The notes under the pieces were generated by a model. It saw nothing but the letters and a program-made list of their open reading frames with translations, made no database searches and was not told the origin of the DNA. Source: an uncultured Thermotogae bacterium (lineage in GTDB: Bacteria; Bipolaricaulota; Bipolaricaulia; UBA7950; UBA9294). Taken from it: a stretch of DNA of 64,000 bases. The stretch spans positions 114,130 through 178,129 of the forward strand of contig CAYXLR010000001.1 in assembly GCA_964466035.1 (NCBI GenBank). The letters run 5' to 3'. This document shows positions 1 to 53,189 of this stretch, piece after piece (positions within the stretch are counted from its first letter, which is position 1; every line of letters begins with the position of its first letter). The translations under genes were made by a program, and so were the position numbers.

Positions 1-1279
1 TGTAATCGAGCGCCCAGACGACCACGACGATCACGAAGATCACGGCCCCGACGTAGTTCCACGCCTCGGGGATCCTACCGACCTCGTTCTTGAAGTAGAA
101 CAGAAGCGTGCCGATCCCGCCGCCGCCGACGAGCGCGATGACCGTCGCCATCCGGATGTTGATGTCCCACCGGTACAGCGTGAACGCGAGGTAGGAGGGA
201 ATGATCTGGGGGATGACCCCGTACACGACGACCTGCCATCGACGGGCCCCGGTGGCGGCGATCGCCTCGAGCGGGCCGGGGTCGACGGCCTCGACCTGCT
301 CCGAGTAGAGCTTGCCGAGGGCGGCGATCGTGTGGAGGAAGAGGGCCAGCGCGCCGGCGAACGGGTTGCCGAAACCGACCCAGACGGCGAACAGAACCGC
401 CATCAGGATCGACTCGATCGAGCGGAGGACGTTGAACACGGTCCTCATGATCGAGTAGACGATCCAGCCGAGCGTGTTGAAGCCCATGATGTTCCGCGCC
501 CCGAGGAAGCTGATCGGGAACGCAACGATCGCACCGGAGACAGTAGCGAAGAAGGCCATGAAGATCGTCTCGAGCATGTAGTGAAGGATCGAGAAGGTCC
601 TGCCGGGGATGACGTTCTCCGTCAGGTAGGAGAAGTTCGGTGTGAAGAGGTCCCTCCAAATGTGCCCCGACTTCTCGATCCGTTCGACCAGCATCTGCAG
701 GTTGATCGCGGTGATCTTCCAGCCGAGCCAGAACGTCAGGCCGAGCAGTCCGGCGAGGAACAACCCGCGATAGGTCGTGTACCACTTCCTCGGCTTCTCG
801 GCCGGGAGCTCGTCCTTGACCTTGGCAATCCGGACCATCCGCCCGGTTCTTTCGGTGTCGTGGACGAGCGTTCCCAACGGTCGATCGGTGAACAGCACGA
901 GCGGCTGGAGAACGAGGCCGACGTGGATCGCGGCGAACCGCGCGAGCCGCTGTCGGAACGGCACCGGAGCGTATCCGGGTCCGTACAGCCGCAGACCGAA
1001 CAGGCCGAGCCCGATCGACTGGGCGAACGCGTGGGAAAGCACCGCCAGCTCGAACGTCGCAACGATCACGAGAGGCCAGCCCCAGCCTGGGAGCGTCAGG
1101 CGCCCGTAGAAGTTGACGTAGCGGACGTACCAGTACTTGTTCAGGAGGTACATCACGCCGTAGGCGACGAACCCCCACGACGCCCAATCGAGCAGGAAGG
1201 CGGCGAGGCGCGGACGAAGCGCTGCCAGGCGATCCGACAGCGGACGCCTAGCGAACTTCGACTTCTTCGGCCTCTTCAC
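1..1279 (-). CDS. phnE: Phosphonate ABC transporter permease PhnE with an N-terminal RDD-like membrane domain; C-terminal end runs off the window
   Basis: Absent from the ORF track (no stop inside the window); found by hand-translating the minus strand. GTG at 1279-1277 with AAGGAG 7 nt upstream. Reads VKRPKKSKFARRPLSDRLAALRPRLAAFLLDWASWGF (RDD-type start), then FMAFFATVSGAIVAFPISFLGARN...GPLEAIAATGARRWQVVVYGVIPQIIPSYLAFTLYRWDINIRMATVIALVGGGGIG (PhnE permease core). Lies directly downstream of phnD-phnC. Confidence 0.8.
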   Translation of the reverse strand, partial: MKRPKKSKFARRPLSDRLAALRPRLAAFLLDWASWGFVAYGVMYLLNKYWYVRYVNFYGRLTLPGWGWPLVIVATFELAVLSHAFAQSIGLGLFGLRLYGPGYAPVPFRQRLARFAAIHVGLVLQPLVLFTDRPLGTLVHDTERTGRMVRIAKVKDELPAEKPRKWYTTYRGLFLAGLLGLTFWLGWKITAINLQMLVERIEKSGHIWRDLFTPNFSYLTENVIPGRTFSILHYMLETIFMAFFATVSGAIVAFPISFLGARNIMGFNTLGWIVYSIMRTVFNVLRSIESILMAVLFAVWVGFGNPFAGALALFLHTIAALGKLYSEQVEAVDPGPLEAIAATGARRWQVVVYGVIPQIIPSYLAFTLYRWDINIRMATVIALVGGGGIGTLLFYFKNEVGRIPEAWNYVGAVIFVIVVVVWALDY

Positions 1280-30742: not shown

Positions 30743-30750
30743 TCACACGT

Positions 30751-30932
30751 CTACTTCTCGTCGTACTCTGCATCGATGTCTGCGCCGTCTTTCGACGGCG
30801 TCTCGCCCTTTGTCGTCGCTTCGTCGGTCGGCTCCGTCCGTTTACTTCTCGTCGTACTCCGTGTCGATGTCTGCGCCGTCTTTCGACGGCGTTTCGCCCT
30901 TTGTTGTCGCTTCGCCGGTCGGCTCCGTCCGT
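30751..30932 (-). repeat. Two 91-bp tandem units in the dnaK-dnaJ spacer, each a copy of the dnaK 3' terminus plus a GNRA hairpin
   Basis: U1 30751-30841 and U2 30842-30932 differ at 7 of 91 positions. In mRNA sense each ends ...GADID(A/T)EYDEK-stop, copying the dnaK end [13 protein letters not shown] at 30933-30965. Each has CGCCGTC-GAAA-GACGGCG (30783-30800, 30874-30891). Confidence 0.9.
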
Positions 30933-32780
30933 CTACTTCTCGTCGTACTCCGCATCGATGTAGTCGCCGTCGTCCTCGTCGTCCGAGCCCGTCTCGCCGC
31001 CGCCCGGCGCGGCGCCTCCGGTGGCCTTCTGGGTCTCCTTGTACGCCTCGGCGGCGATCTCCTGCGACGCCTTGGCGAGCTCGTCGGTCTCCCTTCGGAT
31101 GTCCGCGATGGAGGCGTTCTTGTCGAGCTTCTCCCGCAGGCGTCGGACCCGATCCTCGATGTCGGATCGCTTGGCCGCGTCGACCTTCTCGCCCAAATCG
31201 GAAAGCGCCTTCTCCACCGAGTAGATCAGTTGATCGGCCTGGTTGCGGGCCTCGACCAGCTCGCTCTTCCGCTTGTCCTCCTCGGTGTGCTCCTCGGCCT
31301 CCACCCGCATCCGCTCGATCTCGGACTCGTCGAGCCTCGAGGAGTCCTGAATCGTGATCGACGAGCTCTTCGACGTCGCCTTGTCCTTCGCGGTGACGTG
31401 AAGGATCCCGTCGGCGTCGATGTTGAACGACACGTCGATCTGCGGGATCCCGCGCGGGGCCGGAGGGAGCCCGGTCAGCTGGAACTTGCCGAGCGACTTG
31501 TTGTCGGCGGCCATCTTCCGTTCTCCCTGCACGACGTGGATCTCGACCGCCGGTTGGTTGTCCTCGGCGGTGGTGAACGTCTTCGCCTTCTCGGTCGGGA
31601 TCGTCGTGTTCCGCTCGATCAGCGGCGTCGCGACGCCGCCGAGCGTCTCGATGGAGAGCGTCAACGGCGTGACGTCGAGGAGGACGATCTCGTCGACCTC
31701 GCCGGCGAGGACGCCGCCCTGGATCGCCGCGCCGGCGGCGACGACCTCGTCGGGGTTGATCTCCCGGTTCGTCTTCTCCGGGACGCGGCTGGCGATCAGC
31801 TGTTGGACCTTCGGGATCCGCGTCGACCCGCCGACGAGAACGACCTGGTCGATGTCGTCGGGGCCCTTCCCCGCCTCGCGGAGCGTCGCGTCGACGACGT
31901 TGATCGTCCGCTGGAGGTAGTCGTCGATCATCCCCTCGAACTTGGCCCGCGACAGCTTCTTCTCGAGGTGCTTCGGCCCGCTCGCGTCCGCGGTGATGTA
32001 CGGAAGGTGGATCGTCGTCTCCATCCGGGTCGACAGTTCCTTCTTCGCCGCCTCGCTGGCGTCCTTCAGTCGCTGCAGCGCGCTCGGGTCCTTTGACAGA
32101 TCGATCCCCGTGTCCTTGCGGAACTCCTCGACGAGCCAGTCGATGATCCGCTGATCGAAGTCGTCTCCCCCGAGGCGCGTGTCGCCGTCGGTGGCGAGGA
32201 CGTCGAAGACGCCGTCTCCGATCTCGAGGATCGAGACGTCGAACGTGCCGCCGCCGAGATCGTAGACGAGGATCGTCTGATCGTGCTCCTTGTCGAGGCC
32301 GTAGGCGAGGGCGGCCGCCGTCGGCTCGTTGATGATCCGCATGACCTCGAGGCCGGCAATCCTCCCCGCGTCCTTCGTCGCCTGTCGCTGCGAGTCGTTG
32401 AAGTAGGCCGGGACGGTGATCACCGCCTTGACGACCTTCCCTCCGAGGTGCGCCTCCGCGTCGCTCTTCAGCTTCTGAAGGATCATCGACGAGATCTGCT
32501 CGGGGGTGTACGTCTCCTCCTTTCCGTCGGTCGAGATGTGCACGCGATGGTCGGTTCCCATCTCGCGCTTGATCGAGGCGACGGTGTTCTTCGGGTTGGT
32601 GATCGCCTGGCGCTTGGCGAGCCGCCCGACGAGACGCTCACCGGTCTCGGTGAACGCGACGACCGACGGGGTGACGCGTTCCCCTTCCGCGTTGGTGATC
32701 ACCTCCGGCGTGCCGGCCTCGAGAACGGCGACACACGAGTTGGTCGTCCCCAAATCGATCCCAATGATCTTCTCCTTCAT
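30933..32780 (-). CDS. dnaK: Molecular chaperone DnaK (Hsp70)
   Basis: ORF track 30933..33212 trimmed to ATG 32780 (AGGAGG upstream; ATGA overlap with the grpE stop). [19 protein letters not shown]..., [12 protein letters not shown], full-length Hsp70. Confidence 0.95.
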
Positions 32781-46197: not shown

Positions 46198-46229
46198 CAC
46201 GGGGAACGCTCGAAACGACGTTCCCCGTG
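46198..46229 (-). terminator. Terminator hairpin downstream of the ferredoxin gene
   Basis: 11-bp stem CACGGGGAACG / CGTTCCCCGTG with a 10-nt loop, 10 nt after the stop. On the minus strand it is followed by UUCGUCU. Confidence 0.55.
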
Positions 46230-48544: not shown

Positions 48545-49383
48545 GCTCCCACCTCCTCCTCGACCTCGGCTTCCTCGAAGCCGCGTCCGGTCAACGCGAT
48601 GAACACGTCCTCGAGCGTCGGCTTGTCGCTGTTGTTCGACGGGACAAGCGCCTTCAGCCCTTCGGGCGTGTCGAGGGCGACGATCCGCCCCTCGTCGATG
48701 ATCGCGATGCGGTCGCACAGCTTGTCGGCCTCGTCCATGTCGTGCGTCGTCAGCAGGACGGTCGCGTCGTGCGTCGCGCGGATCTCGCGGACGAACGCCT
48801 GGACGTCCCGCTTCGAGTGCGGGTCGAGACCGGTCGTCGGCTCGTCGAGGAGCAGGAGGATCGGCGAGGTCAGGAATCCGCGCGCCACCGCGACCTTCTG
48901 CTGCATCCCACGCGACATCTGCTCCATCGGGTTGTTGAACGTCTCCTCCTTCAGCCCGAGGCGCTTCATGATCTGGCGCATCTTCGCACGGGCCTCCTTG
49001 GGTTCGAGGCCGTAGAGGCGCGCGGCGTACATCAGGTTCTCGATCGGCGAGAACTTCTTGAAGAACGCGGCGTCGACCGACACGCGGTTGATCATCCGCT
49101 TGACGGCGAACGGGTCGTGCTCGACGTCGTGGCCGAAGACGCGCAGCGATCCGCCGTCGGGGAGAAGGAGCGTCGAGACGAGGCGGATCAGCGTCGACTT
49201 CCCCGACCCGTTCGGGCCGAGGACGCCGAACACCTCGCCGCGCTCGATCCTCAGGTCGATCTCTCTCAGCGCGACGACTTCTTCTTTCCTTCGGGTTCTA
49301 CGAAGCCAACGGCGCCGCTTGGTGCGGTTCTTGCGGACGAACACCTTGCGCACGCTCTCGGCTTCGAGCGCATACGTACGCAT
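48541..49383 (-). CDS. ABC-2 type exporter ATP-binding protein
   Basis: GPNGSGKST, MSRGMQQKVAVA, LLLDEPTTGLD, TTHDMDEA. Confidence 0.85.
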   Translation of the reverse strand: MRTYALEAESVRKVFVRKNRTKRRRWLRRTRRKEEVVALREIDLRIERGEVFGVLGPNGSGKSTLIRLVSTLLLPDGGSLRVFGHDVEHDPFAVKRMINRVSVDAAFFKKFSPIENLMYAARLYGLEPKEARAKMRQIMKRLGLKEETFNNPMEQMSRGMQQKVAVARGFLTSPILLLLDEPTTGLDPHSKRDVQAFVREIRATHDATVLLTTHDMDEADKLCDRIAIIDEGRIVALDTPEGLKALVPSNNSDKPTLEDVFIALTGRGFEEAEVEEEVGA

Positions 49384-49433
49384 GACGACTCCCTAGCTAT
49401 GGCTCTTGGGACGATGGAACAAACCGGCCGACT

Positions 49434-49584
49434 GAGAACTCTTCGAGTTCTTTGGCAGAACCTCCGGTTCTGCTGCCGACATGAAAGCCGACGAACAACT
49501 CTCCGAGTTATTGAGCGGAACTTGGTTCCGCGGGCGACAACGGGCGGCTCTGCGAGCCGCTTGGCAGAACCTTCGGTTCTGCTT
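49434..49584. repeat. Direct repeats of paired tri-loop hairpins in the glnA upstream region
   Basis: GAACTC-TTC-GAGTTC (49436-49450) with GCAGAACC-TCC-GGTTCTGC (49455-49473). Repeated as GGCTC-TGC-GAGCC (49546-49558) with GCAGAACC-TTC-GGTTCTGC (49564-49582). Also AACTC-TCC-GAGTT (49497-49509). Confidence 0.75.
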
Positions 49585-49811
49585 CCGAAGATCCCACCGT
49601 GGCCGTCGAACGGCGGGCCGCGAGGGCCTTAGGTGCTTAGAATCCTCATCGTTTCGCAACCTCCCGAGAAGGCCCGGAAGGGCCGGTTTGATTGGAAGGC
49701 ATTGTAGCAAGCCGGGTGCCGCAATGCAACGGCAGGTCTTGGATTGCTTGCTATCGGACCGCAGTCGACCTAAACTGCCTCCATCCCAACAGCGTACGCA
49801 GGAGGTGAGCT

Positions 49812-51131
49812 ATGGCGGAGAGGAAGACGGCCGAGGTGCTGGCCAGGGTGAAGGAAGCGAAGGTGCAGTTTGTCCAGCTGTGGTTCACCGACCTGCTGGG
49901 CAACCTCAAGAGCCTTGAGATCCCGGCGAGCGAGCTGGAAACGGCGCTCGACGAGGGGATCGGCTTCGATGGCTCGTCGGTTCACGGCTTCGCGCGGATC
50001 GATGAGAGCGACATGCTCGTCCGCCCGGACCCGGACACGTTCGTCGTCCTGCCCTGGGAGAACGTCGGGCGGCTGATCTGTGACATCGTCCAGCCTGGCG
50101 GCGAGTCGTACAAGGGCGACCCGCGCTGGATCCTGAAGCAGGCGCTCGCCCGCGCCGCCGACCGCGAGCTGAGGATGCTCGTCGGCCCCGAGCTGGAGTA
50201 CTTCTATCTCCGATCGGATCGATCGCTCGACACGCTCGATTCGGCCGGATACTTCGACCTCTCCCCTCCGGACGTGTCGACCGAGATCCGGCGGGAGACC
50301 GTCCTCGCGATCGAGTCGATGGGCATCCCGGTCGAGGCGGCGCACCACGAGGTCGCCCCGAGCCAGCAGGAGATCGACCTGCGGCACTGCGACGCGCTGA
50401 GCATGGCCGATCGCCTGATGACCTGCCGCTACGCGATCAAGGAGGTCGCCCGGCGCCGCGGCGTGCACGCGACGTTCATGCCGAAGCCGCTCAACGCCGA
50501 GAACGGGTCGGGGATGCACACCCACATGTCGCTCGCCGGCCTCGACGGGTCGAACGCCTTCTTCGACGCCGAGGATCCGCTGCACCTGTCGGCGCTCGCC
50601 CGCGGCTACATCGCGGGGATCATGCGCCACGCCAAGGAAATCACCGGCGTCTGCGCGCAGTGGGTCAACTCGTTCAAGCGGCTCGTGCCCGGGTACGAAG
50701 CGCCGGTTTACATCACGTGGGCGCGGCGGAACCGCAGCAACATGATCCGCATTCCGATGTACAAGCCGGGCCAGGAATCGACGACGCGGATCGAGTTTCG
50801 CGTGCCGGACTCGGCCTGCAATCCGTACCTCGCGTTCGCCGTGCTCCTGCACGCCGGGCTCGAGGGGATCGAGCAGGGCTACCCGCTGCCGGACCCGGTC
50901 GAGGTCGACGTCTACCACCTGACCGACGAGGAGCGGGACGAACTCGGGATCGAGACCCTGCCCGGCAGCCTCAACGAGGCGATCGCCTGCATGCGGGAAA
51001 GCGAGCTCGTGCGACGGGCGCTCGGCGACCACATCTTCGACAAGTTCATCGAGAACAAGCAGATCGAATGGGACGCCTACCGCTCGCAGGTGCATCAATA
51101 TGAAATTGATCGATATCTACCGATCTTGTAG
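49812..51131 (+). CDS. glnA: Glutamine synthetase, type I
   Basis: AGGAGG 6 nt upstream. FTDLLGNLKSLEIP, GFDGSSVHGF, HHEVAPSQQEIDL, NGSGMHTHMSL, SACNPYLAFAVLL. 439 aa. Confidence 0.95.
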   Translation: MAERKTAEVLARVKEAKVQFVQLWFTDLLGNLKSLEIPASELETALDEGIGFDGSSVHGFARIDESDMLVRPDPDTFVVLPWENVGRLICDIVQPGGESYKGDPRWILKQALARAADRELRMLVGPELEYFYLRSDRSLDTLDSAGYFDLSPPDVSTEIRRETVLAIESMGIPVEAAHHEVAPSQQEIDLRHCDALSMADRLMTCRYAIKEVARRRGVHATFMPKPLNAENGSGMHTHMSLAGLDGSNAFFDAEDPLHLSALARGYIAGIMRHAKEITGVCAQWVNSFKRLVPGYEAPVYITWARRNRSNMIRIPMYKPGQESTTRIEFRVPDSACNPYLAFAVLLHAGLEGIEQGYPLPDPVEVDVYHLTDEERDELGIETLPGSLNEAIACMRESELVRRALGDHIFDKFIENKQIEWDAYRSQVHQYEIDRYLPIL

Positions 51132-51249
51132 CCATCGCCCAAGGTCGGCTGCTCGCCAACTCAGGGGAATGCTCCGTGAGGAGCATTCCCCAAGGGACCG
51201 GCCCGGAAGGGGACGGTCCCCGATCGATCGGTATCTACCGGTGTTGTAG
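51108..51249 (+). repeat. Direct repeat of the glnA 3' terminus flanking a hairpin-rich ~90-nt insert
   Basis: The 27-nt codon-aligned tail is copy 1 at 51105-51131 (ATT GAT CGA TAT CTA CCG ATC TTG TAG = IDRYLPIL*) and copy 2 at 51223-51249 (ATC GAT CGG TAT CTA CCG GTG TTG TAG = IDRYLPVL*). Between them: GGGGAATGCTCC-GTGA-GGAGCATTCCCC (51164-51191) and GGGACCG...CGGTCCC with a GGAA loop (51194-51220). Confidence 0.85.
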
Positions 51250-51255
51250 GTCCGG

Positions 51256-51350
51256 CCGGGGACCATCAGGTGATCGAAGCCTCGGAGACGCTCGGCGTCT
51301 TCGGTGGTTGCGGGTCGCGACGTGAAGCCTTCAGGCAACCGATGAGTCAT
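51256..51350 (-). pseudogene. Orphan 5' fragment resembling the start of a GNAT acetyltransferase gene
   Basis: Strong SD (TTAGGAGGCTAG-ATG at 51350), then MTHRLPEGFTSRPATTEDAERLRGFDHLM, a typical GNAT N-terminus. The rest of ORF 51117..51350 runs antisense through the glnA-tail copy and the hairpins, and looks non-coding. Confidence 0.4.
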
Positions 51351-51636
51351 CTAGCCTCCTAAGGGTATGGGAGGCCAGCGGCCGCTACCCGTTGGATAGC
51401 TCGAGAAGAAACTCAGGACGTCCGGAGATCGAACGCTGCTATGCGATTCGTCTCTCGGGAGCGACCGCTGGCACTCGGTTGTTTGCCATACGGATCACCC
51501 CCTTTCGCCCCTGAGGGACGGTCAGATGGGGCGATTCTATCTCGGGGATCGAAGAAGGCAAGCGAGGGCCCTCTGGACTCCGCGTGCATCCGCCGCCGTC
51601 CCCATCGACGCCTGGCCTGCCGCTACCCTGGCCCTC

Positions 51637-52854
51637 CTAGCGCCTCCGACGGCCGCCGTGGCTCGAGTACGAGCGGCCGCGTCCTGCGGAGCTTCGACGA
51701 ACGGCGGGGAACTGCCGCTCGGGTTCGAACCCCGCCCCATAGTTGAAGTCCGGAAGGCGGCGCCGTTCCAGCGCGGTTCCGAGCGCCTTCTCGATCTGGC
51801 GGACCATCAGTCCGTCTCCCCGAACCGCGAGCGTGAAGGCCTCTCCCGTGCGCTCGGCTCGGCCGGTGCGCCCGATCCGGTGGGTGTAGGCATCGACCGT
51901 GTTGGGCATGTCGAAGTTGACCACGTGAGAGATCTCGGACACGTCGATCCCGCGGGCCGCGATGTCCGTCGCCACAAGCACGTCGATCCTTCCTTTGCGG
52001 AAGCCGTCAATCGCCTGCTGTCGCTGACTCTGGCTCATGTTCCCCTGAAGCGCGGCCGCGCGATGTCCGTGCTTCTTCATGTGGTCGGCAAGGTTGCGGG
52101 CGCGGTGCTTGGTGCGCGTGAAGACGAGAACGCGGCCGGTCGACGTCCGTTGAAGCATCGCGATGAGAAGCTCCTTCCGGCGGTCATCCGGCACCGGATA
52201 CAGCGCGTGCGAGACCGTGTCCACCGGAGTCATCGATCCGATCTGCACCGTCTCCGGATCTCCGAGGATCCTGTCGGCGAGGACGCGGATGTCCTTGGGC
52301 ATGGTCGCCGAGAAGAACAGGGTCTGCCGCTTCTCGGGGACCTGCCGGATGATCCGACGGACGTCGGGAAGGAATCCCATGTCGCACATGCGGTCGGCCT
52401 CGTCGAGAACCAGTACCTCCACGTGTGACAGGTCGATCCCGCGTGCGTCGACGTGATCGAGCAACCGCCCCGGGCACGCGACCACGATCTCCGCTCCTCG
52501 CCGCAGTGCCGCGAGCTGTGGCCCCTTGCTCACACCGCCGTAGATCGCGACGCTGCGGATCCCCGTGTCGCGGCCCAACTTGACGATGTCCTGGTGGATC
52601 TGCTCGGCCAGCTCGCGGGTCGGCGCGACGATAAGCCCACGGACCACGCCGCGCGGCCCTTGGCTGAGACGCTGGAGAATCGGCAGCACGAAGGCGGCCG
52701 TCTTCCCCGTTCCTGTCTGGGCGATGCCCAGAAGATCGCGCCCCTGCAGGATGACCGGGATGGCCCTCTCCTGAATCGGTGTGGGGACGCTGAAACCGAT
52801 GGACTTCACTCCGGCGGCAATGCGCCGGTCAAAGCGAAACCGTTCGAAACTCAA
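51637..52854 (-). CDS. DEAD-box ATP-dependent RNA helicase
   Basis: [37 protein letters not shown]; Arg-rich C-terminal tail. TTG 52854 (AAGGAG 8 nt upstream, giving MSFERFRFD...) preferred over the track start 52884. Confidence 0.9.
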
Positions 52855-53189
52855 TAGGTACACTCCTTGGCTCCGTTGAGCCAAGTCGCACGCTCAGCTC
52901 GGGTCAACCGCAATTCTCGTTTGGGTTGGTATGCGATGGAATTGCTGACGAAACTGGTGCCAAGTATACCGGGTCTGTCTCTGCATCACCAGGTAACTCG
53001 TCCCTGTAGGGAAGCTGAACAGTGAAGCACAGAAGGTCGAGCCCGGCAGAGGCGACAAACGATATGGCCAGTACCGGTGCGCCGGGCGTTGATCAGGGCG
53101 CTGTCGAGTCGATCGCGAGAATGGAGTTCCCCCGCTCCTCCCGCGGGACGCCCACATAGGTCCGGAGGGCTGTGCCCCGGCAGCGAGCC

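Follow-up and report, generated by a model that had tools for sequence, protein, structure and literature searches.

A second copy of the glnA tail downstream of glnA in an uncultured Bipolaricaulota bacterium, probably a relic of tandem duplication and deletion

The last eight codons and the stop codon of glnA are found twice in a 64,000-nt stretch of DNA from an uncultured bacterium of the Bipolaricaulota (contig CAYXLR010000001.1 of assembly GCA_964466035.1, positions 114,130 to 178,129 of the forward strand; hereafter, the window). The second copy lies outside the gene, behind two hairpins and close to the start of a truncated acetyltransferase gene on the opposite strand. How did the end of a gene come to stand downstream of its own stop codon, and does it do anything there? 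Comparison of this locus with its alleles in related genomes indicates that the copy was probably left by a tandem duplication that straddled the stop codon and included the glnA tail and its 3' untranslated region (3' UTR), followed by a 1-kb deletion that truncated both the second unit and the neighbouring acetyltransferase gene of the GNAT family. The copy itself would be an untranslated, neutral relic and a substrate for recombination.

The end of glnA and its echo

The window belongs to a metagenome-assembled genome of 2 Mb with 66% G+C. Its glnA (49812-51131, plus strand) is an open reading frame (ORF) encoding a type I glutamine synthetase of 439 amino acids, with Pfam matches to Gln-synt_N (E = 1e-31) and Gln-synt_C (E = 1.7e-125). 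For the description of the gene end, the 27-nt glnA tail is called T, the spacer S and the hairpins H1 and H2; T1 is the first tail and T2 its echo. T1, the working tail (51105-51131, plus strand; ATTGATCGATATCTACCGATCTTGTAG), reads ATT GAT CGA TAT CTA CCG ATC TTG TAG, encodes IDRYLPIL followed by TAG, and is a quasi-palindrome, GATCGATA-TC-TACCGATC. The spacer (51132-51163, plus strand) has 32 nt and is of the S2 type, homologous to the spacer of the second unit in the related allele G004 and to those of the single-unit alleles L191 and L189. H1 (51164-51191, plus strand) shows a perfect 12-bp stem closed by a GUGA loop, and H2 (51194-51220, plus strand) is a 7+3-bp hairpin whose loop is GGAA or GGAAG, depending on the register. 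T2 (51223-51249, plus strand; ATCGATCGGTATCTACCGGTGTTGTAG) reads ATC GAT CGG TAT CTA CCG GTG TTG TAG and encodes IDRYLPVL followed by TAG, with a T1-to-T2 spacing of exactly 118 nt. It is identical to T1 in 23 of 27 positions and to the T2 of G004 in 25 of 27 and, from these alignments, would be the surviving tail of a second 3'-end unit. Downstream of T2 there is a 39-nt junction filler (51250-51288), located where G004 has 1,038 nt containing the second-unit spacer, the hairpins H1b and H2b, and GNAT codons ~22-335. The description given in an earlier note, made from the letters of the window, of the glnA tail, the echo, their spacing, the hairpins and a minus-strand frame with a Shine-Dalgarno sequence and ATG is correct in all its sequence statements.

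For 2,564 likely genes, the terminal 27 nt were compared with the 400 nt downstream of the gene, using the downstream regions of other genes as control. Six of the 2,564 genes, glnA and dnaK among them, show an echo of at least 22/27 within 400 nt, and only two of the 12,813 mismatched tail/downstream comparisons reached 21/27, none of them higher. The match between the glnA tail and its echo is more than chance. The other gene-end echoes of this genome (contigs C15, C17, C9 and C3) have no sequence or hairpin in common with the glnA unit.

The fragment between 51100 and 51270 folds with z = -3.9 relative to shuffled sequences. Across nine distinct versions of H1 the stem is kept, with standard pairs in 97% of the pair cells and changes on both sides of three pairs, as in L191 (GCTCC/GGAGC to GCCCC/GGGGC) and L102 (G-C to A-U); the loop is hypervariable among alleles (GUGA, GCGC, UUGC, ACA, AGAU and others). 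This pattern points to a structural constraint on H1. The outer stem of H2 also shows a compensatory change in L102, from GGGACCG/CGGTCCC to GGAACCG/CGGTTCC. No U-tract terminator was found 3' of H1 or H2 on the glnA (plus) strand, and the Rfam scan of 49000-53000 gave no match, only two sub-threshold chance hits. H1 and H2 may act as a 3'-end stabiliser or as a factor-independent terminator; two natural alleles, L186 and L190, do without them. The T1 quasi-palindrome, read on the minus strand as GATCGGTAGATATCGATC and followed there by AATTTCATAT (51108-51125), was flagged as terminator-like; it is located within the last glnA codons and could act on transcripts arriving from the convergent side.

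Alleles in relatives and the lost convergent gene

Thirteen further alleles were collected from whole-genome relatives, from metagenome and genome scans and from a 90%-identity GlnA cluster. Including the window, the 14 alleles encode a GlnA 83-96% identical to that of the window and show no unit, one unit, one unit plus a tail or two units, so that copy number is polymorphic among close relatives. Alleles L023, L187 and L188 show T-S1-H1 and half of H2, and then at once the stop codon of an intact convergent gene of 340 amino acids. L191 shows T-S2-H1 and another hairpin, next to the same intact gene. None of these alleles has an echo; the synteny comparison proposed in the earlier note thus finds in them an intact GNAT gene and a single tail copy downstream of glnA. 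G004 (L002 = L101; GlnA 94% identical) contains two complete tandem units 105 nt apart, T1-S1-H1a-H2a-T2-S2-H1b-H2b, followed by the intact convergent gene of 335 amino acids. L102 (G031:C69; 89% identical in the C-terminal 120 residues) contains two H1/H2 modules with a T2 cut down to ACCTGCCCGTGTTGTAG. The window, L021, L185 and L022 show one unit, T2, and then just the first ~21 codons of the convergent gene. In L186 and L190 there is no hairpin unit, and the glnA stop codon adjoins the same gene remnant. L189 and G002 contain a single unit and have a different neighbour, and the more distant L024-L026 and G005 show neither H1/H2 nor echo. One unit is therefore repeated head to tail, as two units in G004, as two modules with a partial T2 in L102 and as one unit with a second tail in the window. 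L102 also contains a mini-duplication after its decayed T2, ~99-140 nt past the glnA stop codon (ACCTGCCCGTGTTGTAGAGACGGTCG / ACCTACGTTGTAGAGTCGAACG), by which the tail region appears to have been duplicated more than once.

The intact orthologues of the convergent gene carry Acetyltransf_1 (E = 4e-17 to 1e-21) and match the mycothiol synthase MshD only below the curated cut-off; they are predicted to be double-GNAT acetyltransferases, weakly MshD-like. Two paralogues with 40% identity are found elsewhere in the genome. The first residues of the GNAT protein are MNYPLPDGITCRPATTADAERV in G004 and MTYRLPDGFTARPATTDDAG in L187, and they align with MTHRLPEGFTSRPATTEDAERL of the window. At the nucleotide level, the homology between the window and G004 runs from the upstream region through the Shine-Dalgarno sequence (GGAGG, 51355-51359, minus strand) to codon ~21, and then ends. 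By local alignment to G004, the window retains a 62-nt remnant (51289-51350, minus strand) containing the first ~21 codons of the 335-340-aa double-GNAT gene. The suggestion in the earlier note of a GNAT-like start was right as to homology, since the gene is intact in relatives, and too long as to extent, ~21 residues being homologous instead of ~29. Its suggestion that the body of a neighbouring GNAT gene had been deleted also stands; on its left side the deletion begins no more than 39 nt from the echo.

The 77-aa ORF which begins at the ATG at 51350 (51117-51350, minus strand) joins this remnant to the chance antisense of the filler, T2, H2, H1 and S, and has no Pfam match. The remnant start codon is mutated to ACG in L021 and L185, to ATT in L022 and L190, and to ATA in L186, and the GNAT remnants of the deletion alleles differ by many indels; for these reasons the 77-aa ORF is read as a pseudogene fragment and not as a gene, and the conservation as a protein that would have contradicted the earlier note is not seen. 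Annotations should leave this ORF out of the gene list and mark a GNAT pseudogene fragment in the intergenic region. Upstream of the lost GNAT gene there is a 16-aa ORF, MANNRVPAVAPERRIA (51439-51489, minus strand), behind a very strong Shine-Dalgarno sequence, AAGGGGGTGATCC. The Shine-Dalgarno sequence, the ATG, the length and an ...AVAP... core are kept in G004 (MTNSSRSAVAPCAGSA) and L022 (MTKSTRSAVAPERRIA), and the ORF may encode a small protein or a leader peptide.

Origin and fate of the echo

The native 3' end of glnA would be a unit of ~100-119 nt, composed of the last eight codons with TAG, a variable spacer, H1 and H2, and facing the convergent double-GNAT gene. The earlier note had suggested, as one possibility, an insertion of the hairpin segment; since single-copy alleles with an intact GNAT gene (L023, L187, L188 and L191) already contain tail, spacer and H1, with or without H2, the segment is better explained as the native glnA 3' UTR, shared with the convergent gene. 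Duplicated head to tail over the stop codon, by slippage or unequal crossing-over, this unit would have given rise to T1-S-H1-H2-T2-S-H1-H2-GNAT, the arrangement that persists in G004; the change would have been harmless because the first stop codon still terminates an unchanged GlnA. Later, in the lineage of the window, a deletion of ~1 kb would have removed the second-unit spacer, its hairpins and GNAT codons ~22-335, and left T2 beside the 39-nt filler and the GNAT start. The earlier note had suggested that the duplicated tail and the GNAT loss could come from the same event; G004 has the echo together with an intact GNAT gene, so they were separate events. T1 and T2 would then act as short direct repeats: recombination between them would drop the unit in some strains, where T2 becomes the working gene end, and would also shuffle spacer and hairpin alleles between strains. 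We consider this duplication and subsequent deletion the probable history of the locus.

Several observations weigh against this history, or against parts of it. The first unit of the window (S and H1) is like the second unit of G004, and its H2-T2 junction is like the first, so that at least one extra unequal exchange or allelic replacement is needed, and the alleles do not fix in which order duplication, deletion and unit exchange took place. The alleles without unit, L186 and L190, could in principle represent the older state for the lineage that bears the deletion. The left edge of the deletion is suspiciously near the end of T2, and the 39-nt filler was not traced to a source, its local alignments to the G004 and L023 loci not being convincingly above shuffles. 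Against the neutrality of T2, the 17-nt T2 remnant of L102 shows one difference next to a spacer that is 38% different, a post hoc comparison which ignores the lost 5' part.

The exchange between repeats assumed by the duplication history is visible in the tails themselves. The glnA tail of L190, ATCGAC|CGGTACCTGCCGGTGTTGTAG, is exactly nucleotides 1-6 of the G004 T1 joined to nucleotides 7-27 of the G004 T2, as would result from crossing-over between T1 and T2 with loss of the unit; T2 would serve there as a real gene end. The T2 of L021 has the 3' twelve bases of its own T1, and the T1 of L022 has T2-like 5' bases, which suggests conversion in both directions. The H2 of the window, intermediate between H2a and H2b of G004, is, with the L190 tail, another hybrid of the kind that recombination between repeats yields. 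The flanks are mosaic too: the ~130 nt beyond the GNAT start (51363-51500 and homologous stretches) occur as two haplotypes 72-78% identical, one in the window, L022 and L190 and the other in L021, L185, L186 and G004, freely combined with the glnA 3'-end types. These mosaics point to frequent recombination in the population. A glnA tree of the close group collapses to a star, in line with a recombining locus, and does not polarise the events. Taken together, the alleles indicate a recombining population in which this locus is a small minisatellite that recombines as well.

It was also considered that T2 is the original end of glnA and was pushed away from the gene by an inserted T1-S-H1-H2 segment, which came from a mobile hairpin element or entered through illegitimate recombination with foreign DNA. 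L186 and L190 agree with this, as their glnA ends with a T2-type tail right beside the GNAT remnant and without hairpins, and so do the two unit types which precede one and the same T2-deletion junction, S1-H1a in L022 and S2-H1b in the window, L021 and L185. H1-like hairpins (GGAGAATG...CATTCTCC) are moreover found at unrelated loci, in the atpA-atpG spacer of this genome, in G006 and in G064, and arms of the H1 type are slightly more frequent in the genome than permuted arms (12 compared with a mean of 2.5); however, this enrichment is borderline, because one in 60 permutations gives as many and a single local array accounts for four of the 12 matches. Insertion is further disfavoured by the alleles with one unit and an intact GNAT gene, in which S-H1-H2 is an ordinary 3' UTR, by the two full units of G004, which fit a tandem duplication and not a single insertion, and by the exact T1/T2 hybrid tail of L190, a signature of unit loss through recombination. 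The 91-nt segment (51132-51222) is unique: BLAST of this segment and of each hairpin against the whole genome, a search which the earlier note had proposed for the segment, found no other copy, only self matches and chance matches of 11-17 nt. A 27-nt target duplication, in addition, fits no transposition chemistry known to us. We therefore regard displacement of the tail by an inserted segment as unlikely.

Two more specific forms of mobile origin were not adopted. A dispersed family of H1-like hairpins was put aside on the few low-copy matches given by covariance-model and pattern searches and on the borderline permutation test, and an insertion of the type of miniature inverted-repeat transposable elements or repetitive extragenic palindromic (REP) sequences, with target-site duplication, does not agree with a unique segment, a 27-nt repeat and hairpins already present in single-copy alleles with intact GNAT.

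Hairpins of similar arms were observed at other positions. The atpA-atpG spacer of this genome, outside the window (G000 C7:44592-44970), contains four hairpins with GGAGAAYG/GAAGAACG...CRTTCTYC stems which resemble the outer stem of H1 and lie in an array repeating the atpG start region. Inside the window, a hairpin of the same arm type, GGGGAACGCTCGAAACGACGTTCCCC (46201-46226), is located 5 kb upstream of the glnA echo. At locus L193 (G006:C6:50900-51900), an H1-like hairpin, GGAGAATGCGCGAAGCGCATTCTCC, with ~100 nt of flank (~490-560, minus strand) appears to interrupt a small conserved ORF and may be an insertion of a hairpin element.

A function of the echo would have to be an alternative C-terminus reached by read-through or frameshift, an RNA clamp of the 3' UTR through pairing with T1, or a protein-binding palindrome, and we judge it very improbable. 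T2 is in frame with glnA in G004 and L022 (105 nt), in G004 without an intervening stop codon by eye, and its stop codon is kept in all five full copies. However, the T1-to-T2 spacings are 118, 101, 119, 105 and 105 nt (99 in L102), the first five being 1, 2, 2, 0 and 0 modulo 3, so that, from allele to allele, T2 occupies each of the three frames with respect to glnA and, as far as the reading frames tell, a conserved read-through or frameshift product is excluded. Many alleles lack any T2, the T2 of L022 has a CGG to TGG change (Arg to Trp), and that of L102 has lost its first 10 nt and changed a Tyr to His. Being quasi-palindromic, T1 can pair with T2, and the minimum-free-energy fold of the window pairs them, but such a long-range clamp was rejected since it is inconsistent in the other alleles, in most of which it is not predicted. 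The absence of an Rfam match at the locus is a further point against a functional RNA.

The divergence of T2 tells against a function as well. Between the window and G004, T1 differs at 7 of 27 positions and T2 at 2 of 27, which could be taken as constraint on T2; this was rejected, because four-fold-site and pseudogene divergence put T2 within the neutral expectation. Four-fold sites of glnA differ by 9-16% within the close group, and T2 shows 3-5 differences per 27 nt between alleles, compared with 18-20% mismatch in the adjacent pseudogene (gap-excluded; P = 0.18-0.62). As T2 diverges no more slowly than this pseudogene, we read it as evolving like neutral DNA.

T2 still reads as protein probably because it has hardly diverged from the functional tail of which it is a copy, in a group where neutral divergence is only ~9-16%. 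Its consensus is ATC GAT CGG TAC CTG CCG GTG TTG TAG, the first 18 nt of which are identical to the functional tails of L024 and L186. The Val codon also occurs in functional tails, as GTG in L189 and L190 and GTC in L185, and Ile occurs there too, so that most T1/T2 differences, being synonymous or Ile/Val, are also found as variants in functional tails. Unusual variants (GAC AGG TAT or ATT..CGA) lie in the T1 copies, where only synonymous change is tolerated. T2 would then be an almost unmodified copy of a functional allele, most of the differences having arisen on the constrained copy or being allelic. The view of the earlier note, that T2 was once the functional terminus of glnA, is fair if T2 is taken as a former or an alternative terminus, since T2 matches the tails that terminate the gene in L190, L186 and L189.

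Chance similarity or an assembly artefact can practically be dismissed: although 27 nt are few and artefactual exact repeats do occur in this genome, the 23/27 match is above all 12,813 control comparisons, there are no Ns at or near the glnA locus, the tail and 290 nt downstream are identical to the window in the four independent assemblies retrieved, from different samples, and a diverged echo is present in four other alleles and a partial one in a fifth. The exact GlnA protein of the window is found on 15 contigs. The artefacts are exact 55-nt repeats on either side of 100-N scaffold gaps (unmerged k=55 overlaps), which mimic perfect echoes with a spacing of 155 and were removed from the echo scan; examples in G000 are C1:22038-22247, C3:4564, C23:6003, C28:4603, C2:131324, C22:4116, C17:15538 and C11:56486.

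Related systems and biological meaning

The closest known category for the duplicated unit is that of bacterial minisatellites or variable number tandem repeats (VNTRs), formed by slipped-strand mispairing or unequal crossing-over, which include the mycobacterial interspersed repetitive unit (MIRU) VNTR loci. The glnA array shares with this category a head-to-tail intergenic unit of ~100 nt, present in 0, 1, 1.2 or 2 copies among close relatives and forming recombining mosaics, and a repeat boundary that overlaps the gene end and leaves the ORF intact. MIRUs are a dispersed family, and their repeat-borne ORF is translationally coupled to the start of the downstream gene (PMC12548453). Unlike them, the glnA unit occupies a single locus, whole-genome BLAST showing no dispersed family, and, with a convergent neighbour, it has no downstream start to which an ORF could be coupled; its copies are also old enough that the spacers barely align.

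Within the window, the dnaK-dnaJ spacer (30748-30961, minus strand) contains a tandem array of 2.4 copies, whose 91-nt unit brings together the DnaK tail (IDAEYDEK or IDTEYDEK), the stop codon and a GAAA hairpin. The parallel in layout (tail-stop, hairpin, tail-stop) drawn in the earlier note is real, and a stop-straddling duplication of this kind at dnaK and at a handful of other gene ends favours the duplication history of glnA. In both arrays the unit is made of the last eight codons, the stop codon and a spacer that contains a GNRA-loop hairpin; its copies follow one another head to tail and differ by mostly silent changes. The unit sequences are unrelated. The dnaK-dnaJ array, with 2.4 complete copies at 91% identity, is the younger one and is located between co-directional genes, whereas the glnA array is diverged, truncated by deletion in this genome and located between convergent genes.

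A structured and evolutionarily plastic 3' UTR right behind the glnA stop codon is also known from Enterobacteriaceae, in which the small RNA GlnZ is processed from the glnA 3' UTR and this region varies between strains by insertions, including a REP hairpin (PMC9731577; bioRxiv 10.1101/2022.04.01.486790). The unit described here shows no sequence or Rfam similarity to GlnZ, no plus-strand U-tract terminator and no evident conserved single-stranded seed; the loops of its H1 are hypervariable, and the whole module is missing from some strains. The likeness to GlnZ would be a functional analogy only.

Elements that insert in the 3' end of a gene restore it, duplicating the att site. The glnA locus resembles such insertions in having two copies of the last codons of the gene around non-gene DNA, the upstream copy completing the ORF. 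It differs in that only 91 nt separate the copies, neither cargo nor recombinase is present, and what lies between them is the native 3' UTR, which single-copy alleles contain too.

Two extensions of the duplication history were considered, which we regard as unlikely. The duplicated tail may be a spare gene end, a safe recombination handle in the last codons of an essential gene. If true, strains could drop, regain or swap their 3' UTR (no unit, S1-type, S2-type or two units) with GlnA unharmed, and mRNA stability or termination dependent on the 3' UTR would be tuned by recombination. In a related reading, the hairpin-plus-gene-boundary duplications of ~90-120 nt at dnaK and glnA could come from one hairpin-driven mechanism peculiar to the lineage.

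By itself, the echo is an ordinary evolutionary scar and needs no new mechanism. Its natural allele series documents that a tandem duplication across the stop codon of an essential gene is tolerated, that an orphaned tail can return as a working gene end, and that such repeats seed further deletions, here with loss of the neighbouring acetyltransferase gene. The glnA locus adds to the hairpin-plus-gene-boundary duplications of this Bipolaricaulota genome, and as a set they may bear on the replication or repair of the lineage.

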